Assembly (NCBI RefSeq): GCF_024223415.1
Contig: NZ_CP100500.1
Strand: one strand, 5' to 3'
Length of the DNA: 64,000 nucleotides
From: Escherichia coli
Lineage (GTDB): Bacteria > Pseudomonadota > Gammaproteobacteria > Enterobacterales > Enterobacteriaceae
Notes under the pieces: model-generated
Told to the model about the DNA's origin: nothing
The model's input: the letters and a program-made list of their open reading frames with translations, nothing else
Database searches by the model: none
Part shown: in pieces, positions 20,995-34,679 of the stretch
Numbering within the stretch: position 1 is the first letter of the stretch
How the letters are laid out: each line of letters begins with the position of its first letter
Made by a program: the position numbers and the translations under genes

Positions 20995-22230
20995 ATGATT
21001 ACACATTTTCGTCAAGCCATAGAAGAAGCGCTGCCCTGGCTTTCCTCATTTGGCGCTGACCCAACGGGTGGGATGACCCGTTTACTTTATTCGCCGGAAT
21101 GGCTGGAAACCCAGCAGCAATTTAAAAAAAGAATGGCCGCAAGTGGGCTGGAAACACGTTTCGATGAAGTGGGGAATTTATACGGTCGCCTGAGTGGCAC
21201 CGAATATCCACAGGAAGTGGTTCTGAGCGGTTCGCATATCGATACCGTGGTTAACGGCGGTAACCTCGACGGGCAATTCGGCGCGCTGGCGGCGTGGCTG
21301 GCAATTGACTGGCTGAAAACTCAATACGGCGCACCGCTGCGTACGGTTGAAGTGGTGGCGATGGCGGAAGAAGAAGGCAGCCGCTTCCCGTATGTTTTCT
21401 GGGGCAGTAAAAATATCTTTGGGCTGGCGAATCCTGACGACGTGCGGAATATCTGTGATGCCAAAGGAAATAGTTTTGTCGATGCGATGAAGGCTTGCGG
21501 ATTTACTCTGCCGGACGCCCCGCTAACTCCGCGTCAGGATATTAAAGCCTTTGTCGAACTGCATATCGAACAGGGCTGTGTGCTGGAAAGTAATGGGCAA
21601 TCAATTGGCGTGGTGAATGCAATTGTCGGGCAACGTCGCTATACGGTGACGCTGAACGGCGAATCAAACCATGCAGGCACCACGCCGATGGATTATCGTC
21701 GTGATACGGTTTACGCTTTCAGTCGCATTTGCCATCAGTCGATCGAAAAAGCGAAAAAGATGGGCGACCCGCTGGTGCTGACCTTTGGTAAGGTGGAGCC
21801 GCGCCCGAATACGGTGAATGTGGTGCCGGGTAAAACCACGTTCACCATTGATTGTCGTCATACCGACGCCGCCGTGCTGCGTGATTTCACCCAACAGTTA
21901 GAAAACGACATGCGGGCGATTTGCGATGAAATGGACATTGGTATTGATATCGATTTATGGATGGACGAAGAACCCGTGCCGATGAATAAGGACCTGGTCG
22001 CCACCCTGACAGAATTGTGTGAAAGTGAAAAACTGAATTACCGGGTGATGCACAGTGGTGCCGGGCACGACGCGCAAATTTTCGCGCCTCGCGTGCCGAC
22101 CTGCATGATTTTCATTCCCAGCATCAATGGGATCAGCCATAACCCGGCGGAACGCACCAATATTACCGACCTTGCCGAAGGGGTCAAAACGTTGGCACTC
22201 ATGCTTTATCAACTTGCCTGGCAGAAATAA
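20995..22230 (+). CDS. allC: allantoate amidohydrolase
   Basis: 411 aa from MITHFRQAIEE, M20 peptidase family. Confidence 0.95.
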   Translation: MITHFRQAIEEALPWLSSFGADPTGGMTRLLYSPEWLETQQQFKKRMAASGLETRFDEVGNLYGRLSGTEYPQEVVLSGSHIDTVVNGGNLDGQFGALAAWLAIDWLKTQYGAPLRTVEVVAMAEEEGSRFPYVFWGSKNIFGLANPDDVRNICDAKGNSFVDAMKACGFTLPDAPLTPRQDIKAFVELHIEQGCVLESNGQSIGVVNAIVGQRRYTVTLNGESNHAGTTPMDYRRDTVYAFSRICHQSIEKAKKMGDPLVLTFGKVEPRPNTVNVVPGKTTFTIDCRHTDAAVLRDFTQQLENDMRAICDEMDIGIDIDLWMDEEPVPMNKDLVATLTELCESEKLNYRVMHSGAGHDAQIFAPRVPTCMIFIPSINGISHNPAERTNITDLAEGVKTLALMLYQLAWQK

Positions 22231-22237
22231 GGAGTCA

Positions 22238-22249
22238 TAAATGGGATAT
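22238..22249 (+). repeat. left copy of the attachment core/target duplication TAAATGGGATAT
   Basis: Matches 33891-33902 (TAAAAGGGATAT) at 11 of 12 positions. GGGATAT is identical in both. Confidence 0.8.
22241..22249 (+). other. allE: orphaned first three codons of allE (ATG GGA TAT), cut off from the gene body by the satellite insertion
   Basis: The SD GGAG and ATGGGATAT follow the allC stop exactly as in the uninterrupted arrangement. Reading continues into island DNA and stops after 12 codons. Confidence 0.8.
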
Positions 22250-22322
22250 ATCTATAACTTATTTTCAATAAGGTATTGATTTAATTAAACAACTTACACT
22301 ACAAAAAGTGCCAAAAATCGCA

Positions 22323-22348
22323 AATTAACTACACCATTAACTACACCG
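22323..22348 (+). repeat. 26-bp island-internal direct repeat AATTAACTACACCATTAACTACACCG (itself a tandem ATTAACTACACC x2), left copy
   Basis: Identical copy at 33743-33768. Imperfect similarity extends about 50 bp further. Confidence 0.85.
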
Positions 22349-22645
22349 TTCGGCGCACTGTATGAAACAACGTGGAACAAATAGGCACAAGAAATATAAA
22401 GGCGGGTAATTTTAAGGGGGCGTTGCTGTCGATACGGGGATCCACATATCGAGATTGATACCTGGCTTTTTTTCCGGTTAACCTTTAATCAGGCTGGTGG
22501 GCTTTACCTGTTCTGTAGGAGTGGTCATTATGACCATTCAGCCAATGACCTTAATCAGAATTTTTCGCTAAAAAATGACGTTGGCCACGTCATCCGGAAA
22601 GCACAAAATCACGTCGATTTTTAATGGATGGTTAAACCGTCTTTT

Positions 22646-22681
22646 TGTCACGGTGTGTCACTGGTTGTCACGCTCTGTCAC
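22646..22681 (+). repeat. four TGTCAC motifs spaced exactly 10 bp apart
   Basis: TGTCAC starts at 22646, 22656, 22666 and 22676, so the copies are phased by one helical turn. Confidence 0.8.
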
Positions 22682-22693
22682 GATGTCCGGCCT

Positions 22694-23044
22694 CCTCACA
22701 TTGAGGATTGTGGAAGAATCAATGGGTTAGTCTTACTACCCAAACTACGGGTAGTTTCCGTAGTTTCATGGTCGAGTTGCAGATCTGCAACTCCCCCATC
22801 AACCACAGGCGAATTTCCGCCTTCGGTCATTCCTTAATCATCTGCGTAATCATAATGATTATTCAGCCACCTCAATTTTGAGGTTTGCTTTAAGTTCAGC
22901 GAGTTACCGCGCCGACTTCCTCAAATTGAGGTTTCCGAAAATATCAGTGGGTTAGCGATTAAGCTGACCATTAATTAAACTGCGAAAATTTCGTAGTTTG
23001 TGACTGTCTTTCAGGCAGCTTGTTATCAGTCCTCAGATGTGAGG
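22694..23044. promoter_or_regulatory. four dispersed palindromes CCTCA-N3/4-TGAGG
   Basis: Located at 22694-22706, 22870-22883, 22919-22931 and 23031-23044. A perfect 20-bp palindrome GAGTTGCAGATCTGCAACTC lies at 22774-22793. Confidence 0.7.
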
Positions 23045-23087
23045 GATGTAGCCAGCGCAATTTTGCGTTATCGGGAATATCAGCAAG

Positions 23088-23369
23088 TTACCGCCGTAAC
23101 CGTTCCGGCTTCTTCCACTGATAAGTGTTTTTCGCGCTCTCCTGATACATCGCCACGCGTCGACGGTATGCCAGCAACTCTAGTACTCTGATTCGTATGT
23201 CGCGCATATCCACGCCGTTAAGCTCAATACCATCACGGCGCATTACATCAGCAACAACACGCACGTAATTTTCGGCGATCACGCTGTCCGGCTGCGTGGC
23301 CTGTTCGTCATGCTGCTGGCTGATTCCGGTAACGCGGCGGATTAATCCCAGTAGTTCGGCTTCTGTCAT
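23088..23369 (-). CDS. hypothetical 93-aa satellite protein
   Basis: ATG preceded by GGGGGC. No family recognised. Lies just beyond the left cos copy. Confidence 0.55.
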   Translation of the reverse strand: MTEAELLGLIRRVTGISQQHDEQATQPDSVIAENYVRVVADVMRRDGIELNGVDMRDIRIRVLELLAYRRRVAMYQESAKNTYQWKKPERLRR

Positions 23370-23402
23370 TGTGCCCCCATCGCTCTGATAGTCTGGTGTC
23401 GT

Positions 23403-23466
23403 CGGGTCCTTCTGGAATTATGGCCCGTTACGGGGCGTCGACCTCGCGGTTTTTCGCTATTTATGA
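23403..23466 (+). repeat. lambda-type cosQ-cosN sequence, left copy (12-mer GGGCGTCGACCT at 23433-23444)
   Basis: CGGGTCCTT..GTTACGGGGCGTCGACCTCGCGGTTTTTCGCTATTTATGA matches the lambda cos junction ..GGGTCCTTTCCGG..GTTACG/GGGCGGCGACCT/CGCGGGTTTTCGCTATTTATGA (from memory). Confidence 0.8.
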
Positions 23467-23480
23467 GCTTTTTTAGAGGG

Positions 23481-23631
23481 AGGTTGTTGTTTAATTGTTT
23501 GTCATATCCATTTGATAACTAAGTAAAAATAAAGAGCAATACAACAACCTGATAGTGTTTTTTTGATGCTAAAAATAAAAAAATACTAATTGAATCAAAT
23601 AGTTTTAAAAAAATACGTGGTTGTTGTATTG
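23481..23631 (+). promoter_or_regulatory. cosB-like region: three GGTTGTTGT(A/T)TT sites in + - + orientation separated by A-tract DNA
   Basis: Sites at 23481-23497 (+), 23537-23550 (-) and 23618-23631 (+). Their order and orientation mirror lambda R3-R2-R1. Confidence 0.6.
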
Positions 23632-23661
23632 CGTATTTGATGGCGTAACAGAAAGTGATTT

Positions 23662-24102
23662 TTAACTTTGCTGTTCTGTAACGACTGATTGTTCCATGCT
23701 GGCACGGCGAACGCTTACGGCATGACGCCACCCAGCCAGAAAGCCAGCCATTTTATTTCGTGCCTTGCTCACATCTTCCGGTGAATAGCCGTAAATATGC
23801 AAACCTTCATCAAATCGCTGTTCTGTTTCTTCACTGAAATACTCGTCGCGCTCTGACGCAATCAACCTGGCAACCATAATCTTTTCCAGTGCGCTGGTTT
23901 CTCCGTGGTACTCAATAGCATCAAGATGGCTTTTACCCATGCACCAGAATAATGTGTGTCCGATGTGATAACCGCCGGACTTTCCGCGATCCGCATCAAG
24001 ATATGGCATGCCCTGTTTGGTCCATGCGCGAATAGTGGTTCTGTTGACCTTGAAATGTTCTGCTATTTCCTGCTGACTCACAAAACAAGCTTTATCAATC
24101 AT
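23662..24102 (-). CDS. Nu1-like winged-HTH protein (small-terminase N-domain homologue; candidate packaging-redirection protein)
   Basis: VSQQEIAEHFKVNRTTIRAWTKQGMPYL aligns with lambda Nu1 VNKKQLADIFGASIRTIQNWQEQGMPVL. The C-terminal half is unrelated to Nu1. Confidence 0.7.
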   Translation of the reverse strand: MIDKACFVSQQEIAEHFKVNRTTIRAWTKQGMPYLDADRGKSGGYHIGHTLFWCMGKSHLDAIEYHGETSALEKIMVARLIASERDEYFSEETEQRFDEGLHIYGYSPEDVSKARNKMAGFLAGWRHAVSVRRASMEQSVVTEQQS

Positions 24103-24169
24103 AATGTTACCTTAATCATGCGATTAAATGTTAATCAAGTGGTGGTGGTGTCACCTTCACGGAAAAACG

Positions 24170-24234
24170 TCATAAATAGCGAAAACGCGCGAGGTCGACG
24201 CCCCGTAACGGGTCCACATGCCGGAAAGGACCCG
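24170..24234 (-). repeat. lambda-type cosQ-cosN sequence, right copy, inverted (12-mer at 24192-24203)
   Basis: The reverse complement CGGGTCCTTTCCGGCATGTGGACCCGTTACGGGGCGTCGACCTCGCGCGTTTTCGCTATTTATGA matches the left copy and lambda cos. Confidence 0.8.
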
Positions 24235-24235
24235 C

Positions 24236-24258
24236 AAAAAAAGCCGGATTTCTCCGGC
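24236..24258 (-). terminator. intrinsic terminator after orf137
   Basis: On the minus strand, the GCCGGAGAAATCCGGC hairpin is followed by a U7 run, 7 nt after the stop codon. Confidence 0.8.
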
Positions 24259-24264
24259 CTTGTC

Positions 24265-24678
24265 TCAGATGGTTTTCAGTATGCGATCGATGTCGCCGTC
24301 ATCGCCCTGGTTTGTGCCATCGTATGCCATGCCAGCTGATACGGCTTTCGGGCTGTGCATGTCCATAAAGTTTTCAAAGGCTGAAGTAAGCTCTGGTGCA
24401 ACCTTCGGGCGTTCCTGCTCTATGGTCATGCTAAGGATGCTTTTAGCCGTACCAACATCGATACAAGGCACGTTAGCCATTGCACGTAACAGCGGCTGGT
24501 AGTCGTCAGATTCATGAAGCGCCATAATCGCATCAGCGCGCGGCTTGTCCTGTTCTTCCAGTTTGTTGAGTCGGTGTATGGCCTCGTAGGTTGATAAACC
24601 TCTGTCAGCCATTGCCCGCGCTTCGGCTTTAAATTTACTCGCCAGCGGTAGCTTCATGATACTTTCATTCGTTGCCAT
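24265..24678 (-). CDS. hypothetical 137-aa head-module protein
   Basis: Strong SD AGGGGGAA. Tightly packed after the decoration gene. No family recognised. Confidence 0.6.
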   Translation of the reverse strand: MATNESIMKLPLASKFKAEARAMADRGLSTYEAIHRLNKLEEQDKPRADAIMALHESDDYQPLLRAMANVPCIDVGTAKSILSMTIEQERPKVAPELTSAFENFMDMHSPKAVSAGMAYDGTNQGDDGDIDRILKTI

Positions 24679-24690
24679 CGTTCCCCCTGC

Positions 24691-25026
24691 TTATCGTGCC
24701 AGCGGCTGAACGGATACGCCGGAACCCGCAAAGGCGGCGCATTTTTTCGCATCGGTGTCGACGCTATCAGGCCAGTTAACGGCGGCAATATTGAATATCC
24801 CCGTTTTGTAACACTGTGCTGATTTCTGCTTTGACGTGTCCACGGGGTGCGAAGTCAGATAAACAGCTTTGCCAGATTCCTGACCATCCCACGCCTTAAA
24901 CTCGCCATTGTCTGCCAGCATCAGCGGGGTAAATTCCTGAATAACGCCAGCATCAGCGGCAAAATGTACCAGCGTCGTGGATACCTGCTGGCTGCCTGAA
25001 AATAACTCAATGTATGGAGCGTCCAT
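24691..25026 (-). CDS. head decoration protein, lambda gpD-like
   Basis: 111 aa. TPLMLADNGEFKAWDG and KKCAAFAGSGVSV align with gpD TPLMLDTSSRKLVAWDG and KKRTAFAGTAISIV. Confidence 0.8.
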   Translation of the reverse strand: MDAPYIELFSGSQQVSTTLVHFAADAGVIQEFTPLMLADNGEFKAWDGQESGKAVYLTSHPVDTSKQKSAQCYKTGIFNIAAVNWPDSVDTDAKKCAAFAGSGVSVQPLAR

Positions 25027-25037
25027 AGAATCCCCCG

Positions 25038-26093
25038 TTAAGCAATTTTGACGGTAACAAATTTGCGAATATCTGCCGGTACCGGCTGCGGTGCGCTGTG
25101 CGTCTGCACGTACTCAATCGCCGGATCGCCGTCCTCAATCCAGTTTTTCGGGTAGTACATGTTTTGCGTTGCGCCCGTTCTTACCGCTTCCTGATCCATA
25201 ATCGCACCATATGCCACCAGCCCTTTATTGTTGGTGTTACCCAGGACCAGCAAATCAGGCTCAAGGAAATATTTTTCGGTGCCGTCGCTGTCAGTGTATT
25301 TGCCGGAATAGACGATAAGGGCCAGATCACCAAGATAGCCTTTAAAGCTCACCACTTCGCCCAGGTTTTTACAGGCCAGCTCGGCGGCGGATTCTGACCC
25401 ACGGGAAAGATCGTACAGTTCACGGAATTTTTTAAAGCTGCGTAATGTGCGCCATACCTCACCGCCCATAATCATGACGTTGGCGGGGCAACCTGCCTGA
25501 TCAGCATAAAGCTCGATGTCATAGATTGGGTCGTGCATGTCTTTATCCTGCTGGGACCATTTTTTACCACTGGCCTGCTGTATGATGCAGTTTTCCGGTA
25601 TTTTCCAGTCGATTTCATAGCGTTCTATGCCTTCGCCCTCAATGATGTTTTTTCCGGTCGTTACCGCATTCACCGCCAGCCATTCAACACGCGCTTTAAT
25701 GGCGTTTACCTGGCGGCGCATGTTGCCAGTAATCAGGCGCATACGGCGATAGGTTGGGTCGTTAAGCTGTGCCGGATCTTCTCCAGCCATGCGCATGATG
25801 GTCTTTGTTGGATCGATTTCGTGCTTTGGCTTCATGTAGCCTGGTTTAATCGTGCTGGTTTCGTACCCTTTATCGCGCTGGACCTGACTACCCACCATAG
25901 GAGAACAGAACGCAGACATCGTAACCTCTTCAATGTCCAGGGTGTCCAGCATGATGTTTTGGGTGTTGAAGGTCGCCACGTTCGGGAAAAACAGCGTGGT
26001 AAACAGCGGACTAAATTTAAATTCCGAAATATCCCCGCGATTCAGGTACGCGAAAAGCTGGTTAGTTGTAAGTGCCGTTGCTTTGCCTGTCAT
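25038..26093 (-). CDS. major capsid protein, lambda gpE family
   Basis: 351 aa. KFSPLF, PGYMKPKHE, YPKNW and HSAP align with gpE KFDPLF, PGYVKPKHE, YPKNW and QSAP. SD GGAGGTG, with a TAATG overlap with the upstream ORF. Confidence 0.9.
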   Translation of the reverse strand: MTGKATALTTNQLFAYLNRGDISEFKFSPLFTTLFFPNVATFNTQNIMLDTLDIEEVTMSAFCSPMVGSQVQRDKGYETSTIKPGYMKPKHEIDPTKTIMRMAGEDPAQLNDPTYRRMRLITGNMRRQVNAIKARVEWLAVNAVTTGKNIIEGEGIERYEIDWKIPENCIIQQASGKKWSQQDKDMHDPIYDIELYADQAGCPANVMIMGGEVWRTLRSFKKFRELYDLSRGSESAAELACKNLGEVVSFKGYLGDLALIVYSGKYTDSDGTEKYFLEPDLLVLGNTNNKGLVAYGAIMDQEAVRTGATQNMYYPKNWIEDGDPAIEYVQTHSAPQPVPADIRKFVTVKIA

Positions 26094-26299
26094 TATTCAC
26101 CTCCGTGAACCTGATTGATACCCAGCGCCGCACGTAAATAGGTGCGCACCTGCCAGCCTGTTGACGGCTCAACCATCGCCAGCGGATCAAGTCCTGCCGC
26201 AATGCCTGCTTTTACATTCTGCTGGTGGCGTTCCTTGAGCGCCTCCACGATGTCGGGGCTTATGTAGACCGTCACCCCGCCTTTTTTCTCTTCTGCCAT
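26093..26299 (-). CDS. hypothetical 68-aa protein, first gene of the capsid operon
   Basis: Translationally coupled to the capsid gene. No family recognised. Confidence 0.55.
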   Translation of the reverse strand: MAEEKKGGVTVYISPDIVEALKERHQQNVKAGIAAGLDPLAMVEPSTGWQVRTYLRAALGINQVHGGE

Positions 26300-26332
26300 A
26301 GTCAGAAATTCCTCTTTGACTTAAAAAATCAT

Positions 26333-26383
26333 AACTGGATGTTCATCCAGTCCTGATTATAATCATGATTGCATTTTGTGCAA
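26333..26383 (-). promoter_or_regulatory. sigma70 promoter of the capsid operon (TTGCAC-16-TATAAT) with an overlapping LexA-like palindrome
   Basis: On the minus strand, the -35 is at 26378-26383 and the -10 at 26356-26361. AACTGGATGTTCATCCAGTC (26333-26352) has CTG-N10-CAG and starts 5 nt after the -10. Confidence 0.6.
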
Positions 26384-26466
26384 TAATGTTGAGTTGTGTT
26401 GCAAATTATGAAATGATTATCCCGATCATGTGTGTCAGTGCACCATAAAAAACCTCGTATACAAAA

Positions 26467-26504
26467 GCCCGATAAGCCCCCTGTGACCTTATCGGGCTTT
26501 TTTT
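26467..26504. terminator. hairpin GCCCGATAAG..CTTATCGGGC with T7 on the plus strand and UUUUGU on the minus strand (bidirectional)
   Basis: 10-bp stem flanked by A/T runs. Confidence 0.7.
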
Positions 26505-26510
26505 AGGCGT

Positions 26511-26532
26511 AAAAAAGCCGGATTGCTCCGGC
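26511..26532 (-). terminator. intrinsic terminator after the PerC-like gene
   Basis: On the minus strand, the GCCGGAGCAATCCGGC hairpin is followed by U6. Near-identical to the terminator at 24236-24258. Confidence 0.8.
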
Positions 26533-26539
26533 TGTGTGC

Positions 26540-26812
26540 TCACTTCTGCGGGTAGTTGCGCCATATTGCTTTGCCAATACCAGCTATCCCCATTTGTTTT
26601 TCAGTGCGATTAACTGACCTTTTCAGAGCGCCTAAATCATCCGGCGGCTCCGGTGGCCTCTGTGCCTTCCGTGAACATTCCAGCCGTCGCATTGCCACCT
26701 GTGCGCGTTCCTTGTCTGTCTCCACCAGCATCATCACTTCACCCCATCGCGCGGCCGCCCTCCGGTAAAATCCTTTCGCCTCCAGTTCCTCCGCTATCCG
26801 GTCATGTACCAT
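26540..26812 (-). CDS. PerC/Pch-family transcriptional activator-like protein
   Basis: 90 aa from MVHDRIAEELEAKGFYRRAAARWGEVM, with SD GAGGGGG. The motif resembles PerC-family A..LE..GLWRRAA.RW (from memory). Confidence 0.55.
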   Translation of the reverse strand: MVHDRIAEELEAKGFYRRAAARWGEVMMLVETDKERAQVAMRRLECSRKAQRPPEPPDDLGALKRSVNRTEKQMGIAGIGKAIWRNYPQK

Positions 26813-26822
26813 CGTCACCCCC

Positions 26823-27233
26823 TCAGAACGGAATATCATCACCGTAAGGGTCATCGCCTCCCGCTGGTGGCTGATTACCCTGTGTGCCTGTGGTTTTGCG
26901 TCTGTTCCCGCCAGGACGTGCCGCACGGGCACTGATTACGCTGTCTGCGATGACCTGCCAGCCCTGCCGCGTTTCGCCGTTCTGGCCTGTCCACTGGCTT
27001 ACCTGCATGTTACCCGCCACGCTCACCAGTTCGCCTTTGTGGTGTCTGGCCAGTGCGTCGGCCTGTCTGCCAAACGCCAGGACGGATAACCACATCGTCG
27101 CCGTTCCGTCATCTGCCTGGCTGCATGGCAGGGGAACCGCCATACTCGCCATCGCCATTTGTGTCCCTTTGCTGGTCTGTTTTGTCTGCGGGTCGTCCAC
27201 CAGCCGCCCGTAAGCCGCTATCTGTGCTGTCAT
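26823..27233 (-). CDS. ssb: single-stranded DNA-binding protein
   Basis: 136 aa with an OB-fold-like N-terminus, a Gly/Pro-rich linker and the canonical acidic tip DDIPF. Confidence 0.85.
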   Translation of the reverse strand: MTAQIAAYGRLVDDPQTKQTSKGTQMAMASMAVPLPCSQADDGTATMWLSVLAFGRQADALARHHKGELVSVAGNMQVSQWTGQNGETRQGWQVIADSVISARAARPGGNRRKTTGTQGNQPPAGGDDPYGDDIPF

Positions 27234-27487
27234 GCTGTCTGCTCTCCGGTTTTAACATTGATGGTTGTCACCTGTTCCGCTCCGGCAATCTCCCGCTCTG
27301 TCAGCGTGGCAAAGTTTGCCGCCGTCGTTGTCATGAATGCGCTTATCAGTTCGGGATGTGCTTTCGCGTATCCTTCCCCCGTGTTGCGGTCGATGATTTT
27401 TATCGCCACCCTCAGCCAGTGCTCTGTAAGGTCAATGGCGCGGTTATGTGATTTCTTCTGATTGTTAAATTTTTCTGATGTGTGCAT
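27230..27487 (-). CDS. hypothetical 85-aa protein
   Basis: ATGA overlap with the ssb start. No family recognised. Confidence 0.5.
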   Translation of the reverse strand: MHTSEKFNNQKKSHNRAIDLTEHWLRVAIKIIDRNTGEGYAKAHPELISAFMTTTAANFATLTEREIAGAEQVTTINVKTGEQTA

Positions 27488-27534
27488 TTTTATTTTTACC
27501 CCCTCGTTTAAAAAGTTTTGAGTTGTGGTGCACC

Positions 27535-27760
27535 TCCTCTACCTCTCTACACAATCATCTTTCAGGTCAGTAATGGCGCGGCTTTCAGCGGGGTAGAGGG
27601 CTTTTTTGGCCCTCTACCCGCCATCTACCACCCCCTCACAAATGCCCTGAATTATGGTAGAGGGTGTAGAGGGCTTTTAAGTACCTTCTACCTGCCATCC
27701 ACCCAATCTATCCACATGAAATATATGTAATTATTTTCTTAAGGTAGAAGGGGTAGAGGG
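27535..27760. repeat. iteron array, at least 10 copies of (G/T)GTAGA(G/A)GG in both orientations; candidate satellite replication origin
   Basis: Includes GGGTAGAGGGC-ttttttg-GCCCTCTACCC (27590-27618), GGTAGAGGGTGTAGAGGGC (27655-27673) and GGTAGAAGGGGTAGAGGGC (27742-27760). Lies directly downstream of the primase-helicase gene. Confidence 0.7.
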
Positions 27761-27773
27761 CTTTTGTCTAAAA

Positions 27774-29522
27774 CTATAAAAACGCGTCGCAGTCGTCTGT
27801 TGTTGTCACGTTGGTTTGCGTAAACCCTTTAATCCTGCGCGTTATATATTCATGACCGTAAACTTTCGCCGCTGGCTTCATGGCCTTGCTGAACTCAGCC
27901 ACGTTCAGCGGTTTGCTCCTGCCTGCATACGCCATAAACGCCAGATAGACGCGGTAAAGGCTGTTTCTGGTCGTGTACTTCACTGAATCGCCACCGCCGC
28001 CCATCATCAGGCCACGTGCTTCCTCCAGAAAATTCAGGAACTGGCAAAACTCAATAACCGGATCCGTCTGTTGCTTTATTGCCAGAGCTTCATCACCGTC
28101 TCGCTGTTCAATGAGTAAAGCCCGTGCCTTTTCAGGGTCGGCAAAGTTCGCCAGCAAGCGGCGGATAATGACAGGGATTTCAGCCGCGATCTTTTCCGGT
28201 AGCTCCCTGTCTTTTTCTGCCTCGCTTACGATGTTATCGAACCGGAATATCACCCGACGACGTGACACGCCTCCTGCCCGTTCGGTGAATATCATCGGGT
28301 TATTATTGGTTGCCAGCACAACCGCCCTGATTACCGCCGTGAATCGCTTTTCATATTTCGGGTTGATTTCCACGGGGTCGCCGCCCGTGATTTTCTTGAT
28401 GCCCGTTCCTTCGCCTGTATATTTCGGCTGGTCTGCCAGGACAATAAGCCTACTCCCGACAACCTGCGCACGCCCACCAGCATCATCAAGCGATGTCATC
28501 TCAGCGCTTACCGTGTTCTGTTTCCCTGCCAGAAGGCTGGCTATGTGTGTGAATGTACTTTTACCGCTCCCGCCGTCTCCGGTGGCCTCAATAAACATCT
28601 GCCAGTCGTACCGGTTCGCCATAATCATGTACAGCGCGGCACATATACGCATCATCTTGCGCGGGTCTTTTCCGGCAGCGTGATCAAGCCATTTATGAAA
28701 GTTTGGCGCGTTGTCGCGGATATTCTCACCTGGTACTGGCGGCGTGTACTCAATGCCGTTGTGTGTGGTGATCCAGTTCTCCGGCGTGTGCGGGGAAAAT
28801 TCCCCCGTTTTCAGGTCAAGCGCACCATTGGCGAACGGCAGCAAATCGCCGGACGGCTCGCCCATTGGTTCGGCAATAACTTTTAACGCTTCCACGGCGT
28901 TACTGATTACGCGCTTGCTGAAAGTGGCCCTGTGCTCTGAATAGATCGCCACCATTTCGCGGCTCAGTTCCATTGTGCTGACCGGACACCATACCCCGCC
29001 GCGCCATACGTGAACGATTTCACTTTCCAGATGCACACAAACGCCATCAAATCGACCAGCAAGCATCTGTGCGCGCTCACTGTCTGCCATTTGTGCCAGT
29101 TGCGTATTTTTCTGCTCCGGCATGGTAAGCCCTGCGGCAATATTTTCACGCTCAGCATTCAGATAGCGCCGCCAGTTTTCACACTTCTGACCGTGCATTC
29201 CTTCAGAGTAAAAATTCGCATCCTGAATATCTGCCGCCGCCAGCTTCTGACCAATCTTTTTGGTCTCCACTAAATCCAGTTCTCCGGCCTGGTACAGCCT
29301 TACGCGTTTTTTTCCATCCGGAACAATTTTCAGCGCATCAAGTTCAGCAAGCTGATTTGGCCCAAGCCACACAGGCGGCACATTATCGCCGGATGCGGGA
29401 CCGTCCTTCTCCTGCCACTGTTGTGCATGCGACCAGGCATCACTACCCGCAAAGATAATTACCTCTGTGTCTTTGTGTTTTATTCCGCGTGGCTGTTTTT
29501 TTACGTTCGGTGCCAGTTTCAT
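27774..29522 (-). CDS. P4-alpha-type primase/SF3 helicase (replication initiator)
   Basis: 582 aa with Walker A GDGGSGKST and a D5_N/P4-family C-terminal layout. Confidence 0.85.
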   Translation of the reverse strand: MKLAPNVKKQPRGIKHKDTEVIIFAGSDAWSHAQQWQEKDGPASGDNVPPVWLGPNQLAELDALKIVPDGKKRVRLYQAGELDLVETKKIGQKLAAADIQDANFYSEGMHGQKCENWRRYLNAERENIAAGLTMPEQKNTQLAQMADSERAQMLAGRFDGVCVHLESEIVHVWRGGVWCPVSTMELSREMVAIYSEHRATFSKRVISNAVEALKVIAEPMGEPSGDLLPFANGALDLKTGEFSPHTPENWITTHNGIEYTPPVPGENIRDNAPNFHKWLDHAAGKDPRKMMRICAALYMIMANRYDWQMFIEATGDGGSGKSTFTHIASLLAGKQNTVSAEMTSLDDAGGRAQVVGSRLIVLADQPKYTGEGTGIKKITGGDPVEINPKYEKRFTAVIRAVVLATNNNPMIFTERAGGVSRRRVIFRFDNIVSEAEKDRELPEKIAAEIPVIIRRLLANFADPEKARALLIEQRDGDEALAIKQQTDPVIEFCQFLNFLEEARGLMMGGGGDSVKYTTRNSLYRVYLAFMAYAGRSKPLNVAEFSKAMKPAAKVYGHEYITRRIKGFTQTNVTTTDDCDAFL

Positions 29523-29818
29523 TTTTTACCCCTGAATACGTTAAGCATCTTTTTTATTTCCTGAATATTGGCGCGTGCTTTCTCCCTGCTGGTTGGTTTA
29601 CTGCGGGGCGCTGCCTGTACCAGAGAAAAATCACGCCGGAACTGATAAACAGGCATCACGCAATCATATTCGTAGCCTTCACGGCGGTAAGTGATGCGCC
29701 GTTCCTCCACGCCTTTAATCGTTACCGTGCCGCCGTACTGGTCGCGGTAAATATCGCCGTTCATAAATTCAGGCCGAGCGGGGCCGCTGGCATTAACGCC
29801 AGTATTTTTCATTCCCAT
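29519..29818 (-). CDS. hypothetical 99-aa protein
   Basis: ATGA overlap with the primase start. Basic C-terminus. Confidence 0.55.
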   Translation of the reverse strand: MGMKNTGVNASGPARPEFMNGDIYRDQYGGTVTIKGVEERRITYRREGYEYDCVMPVYQFRRDFSLVQAAPRSKPTSREKARANIQEIKKMLNVFRGKK

Positions 29819-29822
29819 ATAA

Positions 29823-30065
29823 TTAAATTCCGTTTGTGTGGTGTTTTAATTCGTCAATTTTTTCTAATGCTTTGTTTATCTTGCTGGTGGAAATATCCAG
29901 CAATTCAGAAATAGCAAATATAAGTCTTGCCGTTGATTCATCTCTTTCGTTGTTTGACAGCAATTGAAACCACACGTTTGTAATTTCAATTGCCGAATTA
30001 TTATAGGTTATTGCACTGTTCATGTATTCCGACACCTCTGCAAGCGAAAGTTTATTATTCTCCAT
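29823..30065 (-). CDS. hypothetical 80-aa protein (AT-rich)
   Basis: Predicted helical, with markedly lower GC than its neighbours. Confidence 0.5.
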   Translation of the reverse strand: MENNKLSLAEVSEYMNSAITYNNSAIEITNVWFQLLSNNERDESTARLIFAISELLDISTSKINKALEKIDELKHHTNGI

Positions 30066-30246
30066 AACGTTCTACCCTCTCATCAATTAACCACAGTGCA
30101 ACACTTCCTGACAGTCTTGCCAGAAGGCCAGCTAATGCGGATATATCATCATCATTTAATTTATTAGGGTACGCTTCAAGAAGTCTGCAAATAATTTCGG
30201 TTTGGTGGGCGCGTTCAGCGGCTTCGTGTAATGTAATTTCCTTCAT
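30055..30246 (-). CDS. hypothetical 63-aa protein (AT-rich)
   Basis: Overlaps the next ORF by 11 nt. Confidence 0.5.
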   Translation of the reverse strand: MKEITLHEAAERAHQTEIICRLLEAYPNKLNDDDISALAGLLARLSGSVALWLIDERVERYGE

Positions 30247-30431
30247 TAATGCACCTCTTTTAATTCATACACTGCTGAAATAATGACTTGTGATAAGCCA
30301 TATTCTGATGATTCGCTTCTCACCGCAGCAATAGCCGTCTGAACATTAACAGCCTTCACATTCTGAGCGATACCAATTGTGTGGCCTAGTGGGTTAACAG
30401 CTCGGGCAAATACACGGAAGGTTTTAAGCAT
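30246..30431 (-). CDS. hypothetical 61-aa protein
   Basis: Its start overlaps the upstream stop, and its own stop overlaps the next start by 1 nt. Confidence 0.5.
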   Translation of the reverse strand: MLKTFRVFARAVNPLGHTIGIAQNVKAVNVQTAIAAVRSESSEYGLSQVIISAVYELKEVH

Positions 30432-30789
30432 GGCGCACCCCCTGAATAACCTGATATCCGCAACTGGTCAGCAATTCGATAAATTCCGGCAGAGTGCCAA
30501 AACAGCAATCAGTGCGTAGCTGTTCGCAGGATACCTCAACGCCGTTTTCGTAATGGCTCACTATGCGCCCGGTAAAATGCGGATCATCATCGTGATGGCA
30601 CGTTGACGGTTTCATCAGCCGCGCGCGTTCCGCCAGTTCCAGCAATGCTTCAACGCTTCCGGCAATTGCACCATCCGGCAGGTGATAATTACTTACTACG
30701 CGTCCATTCTCTACATTGACCAGTAGCTGTCCGGTAAATTTCTCACGAAACTGAACGCGGTTAAGATCGGTAAGTGACAGGTTAATCAT
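30424..30789 (-). CDS. hypothetical 121-aa protein
   Basis: Start MINLSLTDLNR, chosen because ATGATTAA overlaps the upstream stop codon. Confidence 0.55.
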   Translation of the reverse strand: MINLSLTDLNRVQFREKFTGQLLVNVENGRVVSNYHLPDGAIAGSVEALLELAERARLMKPSTCHHDDDPHFTGRIVSHYENGVEVSCEQLRTDCCFGTLPEFIELLTSCGYQVIQGVRHA

Positions 30790-30979
30790 GGCACACCTCC
30801 TGACGAATACGGGCGGCGAATACAGCGACACAACCGGACGGGCAACGGTTACGCGCTTCGCGTTCTGTCCAGGCGGTCACGTGGATAATTTGAGATTCTC
30901 CGGCACTCAGTGCCAGAAAACGCCACACAAAGGCGGTTTGTGTGTGCGCAAGGCGTGGGGTATGCTGTGTTCCAGCCAT
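30782..30979 (-). CDS. small Icd-like (P4-family cell-division-inhibitor-like) protein
   Basis: 65 aa MAGTQHTPRLAHTQTAFVWRFLALS...TEREARNRC...FAARIRQE, with SD GAGGT. The family call is from memory of P4-like prophage annotations. Confidence 0.4.
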   Translation of the reverse strand: MAGTQHTPRLAHTQTAFVWRFLALSAGESQIIHVTAWTEREARNRCPSGCVAVFAARIRQEVCHD

Positions 30980-31070
30980 AATCGTTACCTCAATTAATGG
31001 TTTGGTTAGAAGCCCGTTGGTGTTCATAGCGCCAGCGGGCTTTGTCTTTTCATCGATTACCTCAATAAAG

Positions 31071-31151
31071 GTGTCAGCCACTATACTAGTAACAGGTGTC
31101 AGCCACGTCAATAGTGTTTTTCCATTTTCTTGTGTGTATACTGTCAGCCAC
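31071..31151. promoter_or_regulatory. divergent control region with three (G/C)TGTCAGCCAC repeats interleaved with TATACT -10-like hexamers
   Basis: Copies at 31071-31081, 31096-31106 and 31141-31151. TATACT at 31082-31087 and 31137-31142. Confidence 0.65.
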
Positions 31152-31172
31152 CTAATAACAAGGAAATCAGAT

Positions 31173-31352
31173 ATGGCAACGAAAGCAGTTAATGGAAAAT
31201 CCAAAAAACTTGAGGCACGAGTCCCCCATGCAATAGCTGACGCTTTAGAAAATTTAAAGGAAGAAGGCGAAAGCACTGGGCAATTTATCGTTTCGGCACT
31301 TGAAGGCGAGATCAAACGCCGCCAGCGCCGGAAGGCCAAAGAATCAGAATAA
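31173..31352 (+). CDS. ribbon-helix-helix (Arc/MetJ/CopG-like) DNA-binding protein, candidate satellite repressor
   Basis: 59 aa. KKLEARVPHAIADALENLKEEGESTGQFIVSALEGEIKRRQ fits a beta-strand/helix/helix pattern. Divergent from the early operon. Confidence 0.6.
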   Translation: MATKAVNGKSKKLEARVPHAIADALENLKEEGESTGQFIVSALEGEIKRRQRRKAKESE

Positions 31353-31409
31353 TCACTATCAGCGCCGTGGTGTGAGGTACTGCGGCGCATTGTTTTAAAG
31401 GTGATAATT

Positions 31410-31601
31410 ATGAATAACCAAGAACTACAAAATAAAGCATTATCAATTATCATGCGCCAGCGTGAGAAAACCCGCAGGGAAATAAATAAGGCATTAACCC
31501 GCACTGAAAATCTTAAAGTTCCTGATAAGTTCGCCCTTGATCCTTTTGTCGAGAAATACCCTCGGCGCTTAAAAGCAAACAAAAACCGCCCACCTGGCTG
31601 A
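31410..31601 (+). CDS. hypothetical 63-aa basic protein
   Basis: ATG with SD AAGGTG. Followed by an intrinsic terminator. Confidence 0.5.
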   Translation: MNNQELQNKALSIIMRQREKTRREINKALTRTENLKVPDKFALDPFVEKYPRRLKANKNRPPG

Positions 31602-31635
31602 CAATCCACCAGCAAGCCAGGACACTGATCACATT

Positions 31636-31663
31636 GGCCACCGTGACAGGTGGCCTTTTCTTT
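31636..31663 (+). terminator. intrinsic terminator of the rhh operon
   Basis: GGCCACC-gtgaca-GGTGGCC followed by TTTTCTTT. Confidence 0.8.
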
Positions 31664-31716
31664 GCCCGTTATCCGGCAATTGTGGCGCTTCGCCACACGG
31701 TTGATATAATCCCACT

Positions 31717-31787
31717 GCTCATATTCATTTTTTGCGCAGTAGGTTAATTGTTCAGAAAGGCGGCTCCTTATCGGGGCCGCTTTTTTT
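31717..31787 (+). ncRNA. candidate ~70-nt small RNA, antisense to the alpA-early operon transcript
   Basis: An extended -10 TGATATAAT (31702-31710) lies upstream of an 8-bp-stem hairpin plus T7 (31760-31787). There is no credible plus-strand CDS between them. Confidence 0.35.
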
Positions 31788-31928
31788 ATGTCTGAAAAAC
31801 CGCGATTTTGTTGTTTTTCAGTTTCACAAGGCCGAACGAAGCCCCGCCCCTGTTCGGGCGTATATCCAGTCTTCATGGTTAAATCTCTGTATTAGTGGAT
31901 GGGTGGCGGCTGTGTGCCGCCAGTCTTT

Positions 31929-32117
31929 TTAGTGAACTGCCTCGCAGCTTTCCTTCCATGCCAGAACTTCGGATAAAGACCAGCCAACGGAACGACCGCC
32001 CAGCTTACGCCGTGATGGGAATTGTCCGGCCTTTTCCAGGCGGTAGCGGCATGAGCGGCTAAGCCCTGTTAGCTTTTCGCATTCTTTTTCACGTATAAAC
32101 CGATCAGTGCTTAACAC
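31929..32117 (-). CDS. alpA: AlpA-family HTH regulator/excisionase-like protein
   Basis: 62 aa, GTG start with SD AAAGGGGG. The LTGLSRSCRYRLEKAGQFPSRRKLGGRSVGWSLSEVLAW motif is typical of AlpA. Confidence 0.85.
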   Translation of the reverse strand: MLSTDRFIREKECEKLTGLSRSCRYRLEKAGQFPSRRKLGGRSVGWSLSEVLAWKESCEAVH

Positions 32118-32409
32118 TATTGCCCCCTTTCGTTTCTTAAAGAGTTATTTCGTGTTCTATTGCGTTGGTATGTGTCTGATTGTGTCAGGGTGATTCAGAG
32201 TTGGCAAATGTTGGTGGCGGGTATTTTACAGAAACGGGGTTATTTTAATAAAAAACATTTTAATTCAGTATTATGCAAAGGCATAAAATCTCGTTTTATG
32301 CCTTTTTTCTCACTATTTAAAGCGTTATTCGCTAATGTATAAAAAACCAGTTGAGCATTAAAAATCAGCAACTTATAAATCTGTATACTTTTTGGCCTCT
32401 TGTTCGTGG

Positions 32410-32443
32410 TTGTTTCACGTTGTTGCGTATTGTTTCACGTTGT
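32410..32443 (+). repeat. two direct copies of TTGTTTCACGTTGT, 20 bp apart
   Basis: The same 13-mer family occurs inverted near both island ends (22364-22379 and 33787-33800). Confidence 0.75.
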
Positions 32444-32491
32444 ATCTGTGCACTTATCCAGTATGCGCATACTGAAAAAACACGAAAAAAA

Positions 32492-33742
32492 TTATTTTCT
32501 TCTGGTTACTGGTAGCGTGGTTACGTTTTCATGTGCTCCCGCCAGTATCTCCAACCGCTCCACCCACATATCCAGCGCATTGCGTTTCGCATCCAGATAA
32601 CGGGAATGATTATAAACTCGCTGCATTCCTGGCATCTGGTGGCCTGTAAGCTGCTCCACGACGTGAGGATCCACGCCTAAATCGTTCAGCATCGTTGTAA
32701 AGGTGCGCCGGATGTCATGCAGTGACCAGTGAGGGTGTTTAAGCCTCCTGTGCGCTAATCTTCCATACTGCGATACGCTGGCCTCCTGTTTCACTTCCCC
32801 CAGCAATAAGCCCGTGTGCCTGTTCTGCTCCACCAGCTGCGTGACGAACGGCAGTATCGCTTCCGGTATGGGCCGGAATATGGCTACCTTCGTTTTGCTG
32901 TGCTCCTTCGGAACGGTCCATAGCATTTCGGTAAAATCCCACTCCCCGATCTCCGATAGCCTCAGTTCTACTGTCCTGGCTCCGAAGACAATCAGGAGGC
33001 GGATTAGTGCGACGTAGTAAGGGGAAAATATTTTTTTGTCCAGTGCCTGCAATAATTCGCCAAGTTCTTTGTTACTTAAGACACGCTGACTTATATCCGG
33101 TTTTTTCCCAACGTCAGCAACACTCATATCATCAAGAACGTTGCTGATTGCATAGCGCCGCTTCCGGCAGAACTTAAGCGCCTGTTTGCATGTCTGTAGC
33201 AGGAATCCGGCGGAAACAGGGGCTTGCTTTGCCACCCGATCAAAACAGGCCAGCCAGTGCCGTAGCTCGCATTTATCCAGCGGCATAGCACCAATCTGCT
33301 GTATTACGTGATTATTAAGTCGCCTTTTCAGGGCGATATAATCCACGCGGTTTTCCTTTACGTAATACTCAAGCCAGTAGGTAAGCGCATCGCCAACCGT
33401 TACAGGCTTTAACGCTTCCTGTACGGTGTAATTCATCTCATGACGTGGATTTTTCCCCTCAGCCAGCCATGCGCGGCACTGTGCGGCTTTTTCCCTGGCT
33501 GCTTTCAGGCTCAGATCAGGATAATTTCCCAGCTTAATCCGTTCCGGTCGTGCTCCCCTTCCCGTTCCGGCCCTGTAGGTGAAATACCAGGTTAAAAGGC
33601 CGCTGGTTGAATGCCTGACGGTCAGGTTTCCACCGTCATTAAGAAAGACTGTTTTTTGGGCGGGTGTGCCGTTGATTTTCCTTAGCTGTGTATCGCTCAG
33701 TTTGTTAAGTGCTCTGCGCATAATTTTGATTCCGGTCATCAC
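32492..33742 (-). CDS. int: P4-family tyrosine integrase
   Basis: About 410 aa with catalytic HDIRRT...GH...Y motifs. Adjacent to the right attachment site. The start is ambiguous (GTG 33742, ATG 33739 or the ATG of MRRALNKL). Confidence 0.9.
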   Translation of the reverse strand: MMTGIKIMRRALNKLSDTQLRKINGTPAQKTVFLNDGGNLTVRHSTSGLLTWYFTYRAGTGRGARPERIKLGNYPDLSLKAAREKAAQCRAWLAEGKNPRHEMNYTVQEALKPVTVGDALTYWLEYYVKENRVDYIALKRRLNNHVIQQIGAMPLDKCELRHWLACFDRVAKQAPVSAGFLLQTCKQALKFCRKRRYAISNVLDDMSVADVGKKPDISQRVLSNKELGELLQALDKKIFSPYYVALIRLLIVFGARTVELRLSEIGEWDFTEMLWTVPKEHSKTKVAIFRPIPEAILPFVTQLVEQNRHTGLLLGEVKQEASVSQYGRLAHRRLKHPHWSLHDIRRTFTTMLNDLGVDPHVVEQLTGHQMPGMQRVYNHSRYLDAKRNALDMWVERLEILAGAHENVTTLPVTRRK

Positions 33743-33768
33743 AATTAACTACACCATTAACTACACCG
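33743..33768 (+). repeat. right copy of the 26-bp repeat, immediately upstream of the integrase start
   Basis: Identical to 22323-22348. Candidate integrase arm-type or RDF binding site. Confidence 0.85.
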
Positions 33769-33890
33769 ATCGTTGCACAAAGGGCTACAACGTGAAACAA
33801 GCTGGAACAAGAAAAATCACAAATTTGTTTATAATCAAAAACATAATGCACAACCTGAAACATTATGAAACGGCAAAAAACACTAATTGA

Positions 33891-33902
33891 TAAAAGGGAT
33901 AT
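33891..33902 (+). repeat. right copy of the attachment core TAAAAGGGATAT
   Basis: See the left copy. The allE reading frame resumes inside this repeat. Confidence 0.8.
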
Positions 33903-34679
33903 TTAAATAACGTCACCGGTTACCGCGATGATTTACTGGCTAACCGTGCGATTGTGAAACACGGTAATTTCGCACTGTTAACACCAGACGGTCTGGTAAA
34001 AAATATTATTCCGGGCTTTGAAAATTGTGACGCGACAATCCTCTCCACGCCAAAGCTGGGTGCCTCTTTTGTTGATTATCTGGTCACACTGCATCAAAAC
34101 GGTGGCAACCAACAGGGCTTCGGTGGCGAAGGCATTGAAACGTTCCTGTATGTGATCTCTGGAAATATCACTGCCAAAGCCGAAGGCAAAACATTTGCCT
34201 TAAGCGAAGGTGGCTATCTTTATTGCCCGCCAGGCTCCTTAATGACGTTTGTTAACGCCCAGGCCGAAGACAGCCAAATCTTTTTATATAAGCGCCGCTA
34301 TGTTCCGGTAGAAGGCCATGCACCGTGGCTGGTTTCTGGCAATGCCAGCGAACTGGAACGCATTCACTATGAAGGTATGGATGATGTGATCCTGCTGGAT
34401 TTTCTGCCCAAAGAGTTAGGTTTTGATATGAACATGCATATCCTCTCTTTTGCACCAGGTGCCAGCCATGGTTATATCGAAACACACGTTCAGGAACACG
34501 GTGCCTATATTCTTTCCGGTCAGGGGGTTTATAACCTCGACAATAACTGGATCCCGGTGAAAAAAGGCGATTACATCTTTATGGGCGCTTATTCTTTACA
34601 GGCTGGTTATGGCGTAGGGCGTGGTGAAGCGTTCAGCTATATTTACTCGAAAGATTGCAACCGCGACGTAGAGATTTAA
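33897..34679 (+). pseudogene. allE: (S)-ureidoglycine aminohydrolase body lacking its start codon (codons 2-261)
   Basis: GYLNNVTGYRDDLLANRAIVKHGNF... continues to the native stop. ATG is replaced by AAG and preceded by an in-frame TAA. The first possible internal start is GTG 33954. Confidence 0.8.

Follow-up and report, generated by a model that had tools for sequence, protein, structure and literature searches.

The question raised by the locus described here is how a mobile element comes to lie within the first codons of a metabolic gene, what directs it there, and what becomes of the gene. The locus is part of a 64,000-nucleotide stretch of Escherichia coli DNA (NCBI RefSeq assembly GCF_024223415.1, contig NZ_CP100500.1), hereafter called the window, in which 11.6 kb of inserted DNA separates allE, the last gene of the AllS-activated allDCE operon (PMC10163214, PMC12535856), from its own start codon. 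By its gene content and sequence identity, the insert is assigned to the phage-inducible chromosomal islands (PICIs) of the EcCICFT073 type, which are cos-packaged and use lambdoid helper phages. We consider it highly probable that this island was placed on the allE start by its own integrase, through recombination of attP with a 23-bp attB within the heptamer GGGATAT, that allE is likely silenced, and that the target is most likely set by the overlap.

The exactness of the insertion is seen at its two junctions. The gene upstream, allC (allantoate deiminase; 20995..22230, + strand), is intact according to the list of open reading frames (ORFs) and to the annotation of the identical flank in strains SCU-316 and AR_0085; its stop codon lies at 22228-22230 and the AGGAG Shine-Dalgarno sequence of allE at 22230-22234. 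Right after these, the left junction reads TAAATGGGATAT (22238-22249), while the right junction reads TAAAAGGGATAT (33891-33902) and continues as TTAAATAACGTCACC. The first-pass annotation of this DNA had proposed, from TAAA(T/A)GGGATAT at both junctions and from the first allE codons of strain K-12, that 11,646 bp were inserted by site-specific recombination, and the comparison with an empty site that it had asked for upholds this. The pattern TAAAWGGGATAT has only two matches in the window, which are the two junctions (0.01 expected by chance), and the start codons so proposed agree with the empty site of E. coli SCU-316, ggagTCATAAATGGGATATTTAAATAACGTC, which is annotated allC / allE, has an allC end 100% identical to that of the window, and gives the native allE start as ATGGGATATTTAAATAACGTC. 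In the empty-site strains the allC/allE junction reads TCATAAA-T-GGGATAT-T-TAAATAA, and the window equals this empty site with DNA inserted after GGGATAT, so that 11,646 bp (22250-33895) separate two copies of a 7-bp core, or 11,653 bp with one copy counted. At the right junction (attR), AAG (33894-33896) stands in place of ATG, with an in-frame TAA (33891-33893) just before it, and the allE frame (786 nt) is identical to that of SCU-316 but for this one base. The junction sequences thus also confirm that the rest of allE has been cut off from its start codon, its Shine-Dalgarno sequence and its coupling to allC. Of the 5,342 complete E. coli genomes with this region, 5,316 show an unbroken allC-allE junction; in about 14 it is interrupted or partly deleted in a way that is not the PICI insertion, as in CP131_Sichuan, which matches the allE side only.

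The anatomy of the attachment sites narrows the crossover further. The attL core (22235..22257, +), TCATAAA-T-GGGATAT-A-TCTATAA, consists of the chromosomal half-site B (22235-22241), a T (22242), the overlap (22243-22249), an A and the element half-site C' (22251-22257), and does not vary among six occupied loci and two IMG/VR proviruses. The attR core (33888..33910, +), taken from the junction and the aligned cores, is TGATAAA-A-GGGATAT-T-TAAATAA, with the element half-site C, an A (33895), the overlap (33896-33902), a T and the chromosomal half-site B'. The allE-type attP core reconstructed from the two, TGATAAA-A-GGGATAT-A-TCTATAA, matches the allE attB, i.e. the empty-site sequence given above, at 18 of 23 positions. 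Between attB and attP the block of identity is exactly 7 bp, with a T/A mismatch on either side; the T is always kept in attL and the A always in attR, and these bounding mismatches with their fixed pattern confine strand exchange to GGGATAT. Since the identity blocks of the sister islands at the roxA-phoQ and tqsA sites are 9-10 bp, the 7-bp block at allE fixes the position of the overlap for them as well, and so pins the crossover region for the whole integrase group. The roxA-type attP core is TGATAAA-A-TATGTCC-T-TTTATCA, a perfect dyad (TGATAAA-N9-TTTATCA), and the tqsA-type core is TGATAAA-A-TGCTGTT-A-TATATAA; placed in register with int on the right, each of the three types has 32 nt from TAAAA to the conserved ATTGATTTAATTAAA. 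A secondary-site idea, suggested by the resemblance of GGACATATTT to GGGATATTT, was rejected once the cores were aligned in register. In the roxA-phoQ island of E. coli MEI4BO-21 the attL overlap is TATGTCC and the attR overlap TATGCCC, which could be the trace of a recombination between mismatched overlaps or a mutation acquired afterwards.

In the mechanism proposed here, the island's own tyrosine integrase would recombine the attP core with an attB that takes in the spacer behind the Shine-Dalgarno sequence, the start codon ATG and allE codons 2-6. With strand exchange inside GGGATAT, the base to the left of the overlap would stay the chromosomal T in attL and be the element's A in attR, and it is this A that turns ATG into AAG. 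The rest of allE would be left at a distance of 11.6 kb from its promoter and ribosome-binding site, behind island genes that run in the opposite direction. Precise excision would restore allE, the predicted products being an attP with TGATAAAAGGGATATATCTATAA / TTGATAAAAGGGATATATCTATAAC and an attB with ATGGGATATTTAAAT / CATAAATGGGATATTTAAATAAC.

Both ends of the island also carry repeated motifs of the kind expected of integrase arm sites. The doubled motif ATTAACTACACC x2 is found in the int-distal (P') arm at 22324..22347 (+), with its start 78 bp away from the centre of the overlap, and in the int-proximal (P) arm at 33744..33767 (+), ending 132 bp from it and abutting the int start codon. 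The window holds four such half-sites, all within the two arms (0.65 expected), which are most likely binding sites for the arm domain of the integrase. A second motif, ACAACGTGRAACA, has five matches where 0.18 are expected: three in the att arms (22367-22379, + strand, reading ACAACGTGGAACA in the P' arm; 33787-33799; 33850-33862) and two in the spacer between int and alpA, where two ACAACGTGAAACA motifs (32411..32443, -) are inverted relative to the att-arm copies. By analogy, it is a candidate accessory site for AlpA or Int, or a site for another factor of recombination or regulation. The published 26-bp 'att site core' of EcCIDI14, CGGTGTAGTTAATGGTGTAGTTAATT (PMC6092414 Table S1), reads as the doubled arm motif in reverse complement; in the window (22323-22348, 33743-33768) this motif sits 78-155 bp inside both ends of the inserted DNA. 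Judged by this position, the EcCIDI14 'core' is probably an arm-type integrase site and not the crossover, and the doubled 14-mers given as cores of yejM-site PICIs appear to be the same kind of sequence; the 26-29-bp 'att cores' published for some PICIs would thus probably be arm-type sites.

As to the fate of the gene, allE is intact from codon 2 to the stop (33897..34679, +) by comparison with SCU-316, and lacks a start codon and a Shine-Dalgarno sequence. Its product (PDB 1RC6) is a ureidoglycine aminohydrolase, acting at the step upstream of the ureidoglycolate branch point, and a contribution of allE to survival of long nitrogen starvation has been reported (PMC10163214, PMC12535856). 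The first in-frame alternative starts are CTG at codon 15 (33936), ATT at codon 20 and GTG at codon 21 (33954); none is preceded by a Shine-Dalgarno sequence, and there is no in-frame ATG, GTG or TTG before GTG-21. The gene now lies 11.6 kb from its promoter, past opposing genes and several strong + strand structures of a hairpin plus T-run at 31.0-31.9 kb. From these features, allE is most likely not translated, or only poorly, and the metabolic cost that had been proposed for the insertion is plausible. The orphaned allE Shine-Dalgarno sequence and ATG (22241-22243) now open a 12-codon ORF, MGYIYNLFSIRY followed by a stop (22241-22279), that runs into the island arm.

The alternative that survives best is that the insertion is harmless, AllE being made from CTG-15 or GTG-21, or ureidoglycine decaying unaided, so that there is no metabolic cost. 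Several observations speak for it and so weigh against silencing: the reading frame of allE is intact in all six occupied loci examined; the alignment with distant homologues, solved structures among them, begins only at residues 18-21, so that these lack the first 17-20 residues and a product initiated at CTG-15 or GTG-21 might still be active; and ureidoglycine has been described as unstable (PMC10163214). Promoter-like sites in the region stand at chance level (15, with 15.4 expected) and support no inference on transcription into allE, and terminator-like sites are mildly enriched (23, with 15.2 expected and a standard deviation of 3.9). In addition, RefSeq (PGAP) gives a 744-nt, 247-aa allE from CTG-15, never a pseudogene, in all five occupied complete genomes examined. 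Against a harmless insertion, CTG is a poor initiator, the alternative starts have no Shine-Dalgarno sequence, and allE depends on the AllS-activated allD promoter (PMC12535856), now far upstream across opposing genes and terminator-like hairpins. Moreover, two of the five occupied complete genomes carry further pseudogenes in the allantoin cluster, namely allC with an internal stop in E300010, and a truncated fdrA with the adjacent DUF1116 gene (ylbE position) in AR_0085; these may reflect relaxed selection after loss of allE, although they are suggestive only. On balance we regard a harmless insertion as unlikely, and inactivation of allE as the better reading. If allE is indeed silenced, the RefSeq annotation hides the disruption, and surveys of pan-genomes or metabolic models would score these strains as allE-positive; for the split tqsA, on the other hand, RefSeq does give a pseudogene. 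The insertion breaks a metabolic gene rather than preserving it, and the island supplies neither start codon nor Shine-Dalgarno sequence, which by sequence is the arrangement termed regulated gene integrity, where a target is inactivated without replacement (PMC7192596). Precise excision would restore ATGGGATAT, but a benefit of excision to the host is doubtful, since PICI excision would normally go with induction of the helper phage.

The allE site is used recurrently, if rarely. Of 5,426 complete E. coli genomes, 12 carry both allE junctions, whereas roxA-phoQ is occupied in 599 and tqsA in 247 of the complete genomes, so that allE is about 50 times rarer than roxA-phoQ. Six occupied loci (the window, AR_0085, TUM1886, 2012C-4502, AST19 and E300010) were examined base by base, and all six have ATAAATGGGATAT joined to ATCTATAAC at attL and TTGATAAAAGGGATAT joined to TTAAATAAC at attR. 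The occupants range from 10.4 to 14.9 kb and are classical PICIs in the window and in AR_0085, capsid-forming PICIs (with TerL, TerS, HNH, portal, protease and HK97 capsid genes) in TUM1886, 2012C-4502 and AST19, and a shorter derivative in E300010. Their allC flanks diverge by 0.9-2.9%; such differing flanks and backbones with the same junctions point to separate entries into different genetic backgrounds. The attB sequence is kept in E. coli, Shigella flexneri, E. whittamii, E. ruysiae and Escherichia sp. E1V33. The 2018 survey (PMC6092414) has eight PICI sites in E. coli, of which allE is not one, and allE, ylbA or allC was not found as an integration site in PMC6092414, PMC10111431, PMC7192596 or PMC10121019, supplements included, or by full-text searches, which covered open-access text and not the TIGER/Islander database; allE is therefore a rare PICI attachment site that has apparently gone unreported so far.

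These occupied loci could instead descend from a single old, immobile insertion that was spread by homologous recombination of its flanks while its interior was swapped in place. The island interiors are indeed mosaics of modules from other sites, that of the window being composed of modules known from sister islands, and the allE-type attP, which would mark an excised or circular form, was not found with exact or relaxed patterns in IMG/VR, in 185,579 species genomes (one per species, GTDB) or in JGI metagenomes; the 24 matches to the relaxed pattern are unrelated AT-rich sequences without arm motifs. This absence tells against a mobile allE lineage, but it carries little weight, because the roxA-type attP is likewise absent from IMG/VR despite its 599 occupied genomes. 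The tqsA-type attP, searched as a control, was found in IMGVR_UViG_3300045988_152974, a metagenomic viral contig of 11,098 bp whose 119-bp terminal repeat gives a circular unit of 10,979 bp. In it the P arm, TGATAAA-A-TGCTGTT-A-TATATAA and the P' arm are contiguous, exactly as in the reconstructed attP, and the circle is collinear with the island of the window. The tqsA sister lineage thus provides a documented case of precise excision at the predicted crossover, and the circle is direct evidence for excised or packaged DNA of this island family in nature. An immobile insertion also fits poorly with all six loci having kept int, alpA, the two att cores and the arm motifs intact, and with E300010 and AST19, whose left arms are identical and whose integrases are 99.8% identical while flanks among the loci are up to 2.9% apart. 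We therefore hold this alternative to be very improbable; by analogy with the tqsA lineage, islands at allE, including the copy in the window, would still be able to excise.

A further possibility is that allE was entered by accident, as a secondary site of a roxA- or tqsA-type island, in the way that lambda integrates when its primary site is missing. Such events are documented for related integrases of helper-embedded PICIs (HE-PICIs; PMC10111431), allE is, as noted, seldom used, and the integrases closest to those of the window and of AR_0085 come from the roxA site (96.6% and 98.0% identity, respectively), other allE-site proteins being 89-94% identical. Against this, GGGATAT stands in both attL and attR of all six loci, with no hybrid there or in the two proviruses, and the same junctions recur across different backbones and divergent host flanks. 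Furthermore, most allE-occupied genomes have no second island with these arms, and their primary sites are free, so that allE is not a fallback for an occupied primary site. An off-target origin therefore seems most improbable, and integration directed to allE by the island's own attP is the reading retained.

What, then, directs the island to allE? Fifteen integrases were compared (six from allE, four from roxA, four from tqsA and one from an IS110 transposase site); they are 82-100% identical overall, and those at allE, roxA and tqsA are 88-98% identical. Over residues 101-210, the allE-site protein of AR_0085 and the roxA-site protein of GF4 show 100% identity, and neither the allE group nor the roxA group has a fixed residue of its own among the 15; fixed differences can only be lost, never gained, when a sample is enlarged. 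What sets the tqsA group apart is confined to residues 1-56, in the arm-binding domain, and goes with a variant arm motif. The integrase tree, in short, does not follow the target site, unlike that of the HE-PICIs with their site-coherent subclades. At the level of DNA, the island of the window and the tqsA-site island of strain Ch1 share 96% identity between 22250, the first base past the overlap, and 27463, and 93% identity between 30429 and the base that immediately precedes the overlap. Target choice most likely tracks the 7-bp attP overlap together with loosely specified AT-rich half-sites, rather than changes in the integrase, and allE would be chosen in this way by the integrase family that also serves the roxA-phoQ and tqsA islands. 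Two points count against this: on the P' side, about 25 nt adjoining the overlap are likewise different between the roxA and allE types of attP, and the integrase sample is small (6, 4, 4 and 1), so that combinations of residues could still matter. More tentatively, a single nearly unchanged integrase may serve at least three sites (roxA-phoQ, tqsA and allE) with the target set by the overlap and loose half-sites; the allE lineage might then be a recent reprogramming of a tqsA- or roxA-type attP, and a change of seven bases could be enough to direct such an island, or an engineered cargo, to a site of choice. If target choice does reside in the overlap and not in the protein, these islands would offer a simple natural scaffold for retargetable integration.

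The assignment of the element as a classical Gram-negative PICI is based on its gene content, its identity to EcCICFT073 (the island of CFT073; 89% identity across 79% of the length), its cos.1/cos.2-like sites and the iterons 3' of pri-rep. It agrees with the description of PICIs in PMC6092414: the island falls within the 8-15 kb range and is bounded by att repeats at a specific site; all its recognisable genes are on the minus strand, with int and alpA at one end; by sequence it has its own putative primase/initiator and iteron-type origin; it has helper-type cos sites and no tail, lysis or full set of morphogenesis genes; and its att site is not shared with prophages, since the six occupants examined are all PICIs. 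For induction by a helper phage, with excision, replication and transfer at high frequency, the circular tqsA-type sister gives indirect evidence only. Domain and phrog assignment of its ORFs gave no tail, lysis, portal, protease or large-terminase gene, and as TerL, portal, protease and an HK97-type capsid are absent, it lies outside the capsid-forming PICIs. The first-pass annotation had spoken of a satellite with a 'P4-family integrase'; the satellite part of that description stands, and the P4 label holds for the integrase only in the sense of a broad PICI/P4 clade. A P4-type satellite dependent on a P2-like helper is scarcely credible here, for although the integrase domains (Arm-DNA-bind_3 and Phage_integrase), the primase domains (D5_N, DUF5906 and Pox_D5) and the RefSeq name of a homologue ('phage/plasmid primase, P4 family') recall P4, none of psu, sid, delta and epsilon was matched among the 20 ORFs scanned, the cos sites are of lambda type and match cos.1 and cos.2 of EcCICFT073, the head genes are lambda E/D-like, the identity to EcCICFT073 is extensive, and an Rfam scan over the island at E <= 0.1 gave no match, hence no P4-type CI RNA or other immunity RNA.

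The genes of the island, all on the minus strand, are as follows from the integrase end. The int gene (32492..33721) encodes a 409-aa tyrosine integrase with an arm-binding domain (Arm-DNA-bind_3, 1.8e-18; Phage_integrase, 2e-16; a weak Phage_int_M match below Pfam's cut-off), with no more than 49% identity to any of the integrases found in 50,697 phage records; its placement in the PICI/P4 integrase clade, in the broad sense, follows the published grouping of Tommasini et al. 2023 (PMC10111431). It is followed by alpA (31929..32117; Phage_AlpA), whose product controls induction of the PICI cycle in EcCICFT073 (PMC6092414), and by a variable zone (29823..31876) with small ORFs (phrog_5796, 1478, 3672 and 340) and a 364-aa ORF (30782-31876), of which an Icd-like C-terminus is the one recognisable part. 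In the 30782-31925 zone, a YlcI/YnfO-like segment on the + strand overlaps this ORF, and four strong + strand terminator-like hairpins are found (31009, 31362, 31636 and 31904). About 620 bp (29810-30428), holding the small ORFs phrog_5796, 1478 and 3672, have no nucleotide match in any of 15 related loci. Next come a DUF4222 protein (29519-29818) and Pri-Rep (27774-29522; D5_N, DUF5906, Pox_D5), directly 3' of which a repeat search found three 16-nt iterons GGGGTAGAGGGCTTTT (27590, 27663 and 27750, within 27590..27765); they form a putative replication origin, in the same placement as the origins of other PICIs (PMC6092414). A phrog_1231 gene (27230-27487), SSB (26823-27233) and the PerC-family regulator perC (26540-26932 as listed; PerC domain at residues 41-129) precede a head module (24265..26299), which domain and phrog matches and the annotation of relatives resolve into a small phrog_3255 gene (26093-26299), a lambda E-like major capsid protein (25038-26093), a lambda D-like decoration protein (24691-25026) and a connector-like protein (24265-24678).

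Beyond the head module, a 146-aa protein with an N-terminal small-terminase-like helix-turn-helix (23662..24102, -) is a candidate for packaging redirection; its homologue in CFT073 has the same position, with 89% nucleotide identity from 23666 onward. The gene is bracketed by a 64-nt inverted repeat, the arms of which match the published cos.1 and cos.2 of EcCICFT073, including cosQ and cosN: a cos.2-like site at 23400..23473 (+), with a cosQ-like TCGTCGGGTCCTTC and a cosN-like GGGCGTCGACCT, and a cos.1-like site at 24163..24240 (-), inverted relative to it. Both EcCICFT073 sites have been shown to be functional in that island (PMC6092414). The two sites of the window share the cosN variant GGGCGTCGACCT, where lambda, phi80 and CFT073 have GGGCGGCGACCT, and this may hint at a helper phage whose cohesive end matches it. 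The last gene (23088..23369, -) is a conserved terminal PICI gene of 93 aa, phrog_1561, without assigned function and present in all related islands. The left end beyond it (22420-23087) is only patchily conserved in the sister islands and contains no convincing ORF; it carries 32-nt and 44-nt direct repeats (22687, 22878, 22912, 22926 and 23062).

Compared with known systems, the island is closest to EcCICFT073 (PMC6092414), which has the same order of int, alpA, variable zone, DUF4222, pri-rep, iteron origin, SSB, perC and E/D-like head genes, the same TerS-like gene between two inverted cos sites and the same terminal 93-aa gene, as well as an integrase 93.6% identical to that of the window. 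EcCICFT073, however, lies between roxA (ycfD) and phoQ, with the overlap TATGTCC and the perfect-dyad attP core, whereas the island of the window has GGGATAT, a different 25-nt P' side and a different variable zone. Like the island at allE, EcCI042 and the other tqsA-site PICIs (PMC6092414 Table S1) lie within the 5' part of a protein gene whose lost part is not replaced, and tqsA is accordingly a gene-disrupting candidate for regulated gene integrity (PMC7192596). They share the layout of half-sites, and in Ch1 arms that are near-identical up to the overlap, but differ in the overlap TGCTGTT, in the arm-binding residues 1-56 and in the variant arm motif. The suggestion that the 5' end of a protein gene is an unusual target thus does not hold for this clade, in which integrases of near-identical sequence interrupt tqsA, 144 nt into the gene, as well as an IS110 transposase gene, and related ones target prophage late genes (PMC6092414 Table S1; PMC7192596; PMC10111431). 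In the HE-PICIs (Tommasini, Mageeney and Williams 2023, PMC10111431), satellite integrases have repeatedly gained targets inside protein genes, and attP similarly carries a doubled arm motif twice, at 81 and 132 bp there and at 78 and 132 bp here; the motif itself is TGTATTGC there and AACTACACC here, the HE-PICI integrase subclades follow 14 target sites, and the targets of the window type are chromosomal. The capsid-forming PICIs (bioRxiv 10.1101/2022.09.08.507074) share with the window the allE site and the int/att module in TUM1886, 2012C-4502 and AST19, and differ by their TerL, portal, protease and HK97-type capsid.

The element type, the integrase clade, cos packaging and integration into the 5' part of genes have all been published (PMC6092414, PMC7192596, PMC10111431), and the novelty of the present case is modest in this respect. 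What it adds is an attachment site not found in the published lists of E. coli PICIs, together with two points of specialist interest: an integrase tree that does not follow the target site, and an annotation that masks the disruption of a gene. The nearest parallel to the choice of target comes from lambda, for which the saf overlap mutants and secondary att sites of Weisberg et al. in 1983 reportedly showed that identity in the 7-bp overlap steers insertion more than recognition by the integrase does. In lambda, however, these were laboratory mutants and secondary sites of low efficiency, whereas the islands compared here are natural lineages, each overlap having its own recurrent chromosomal site.

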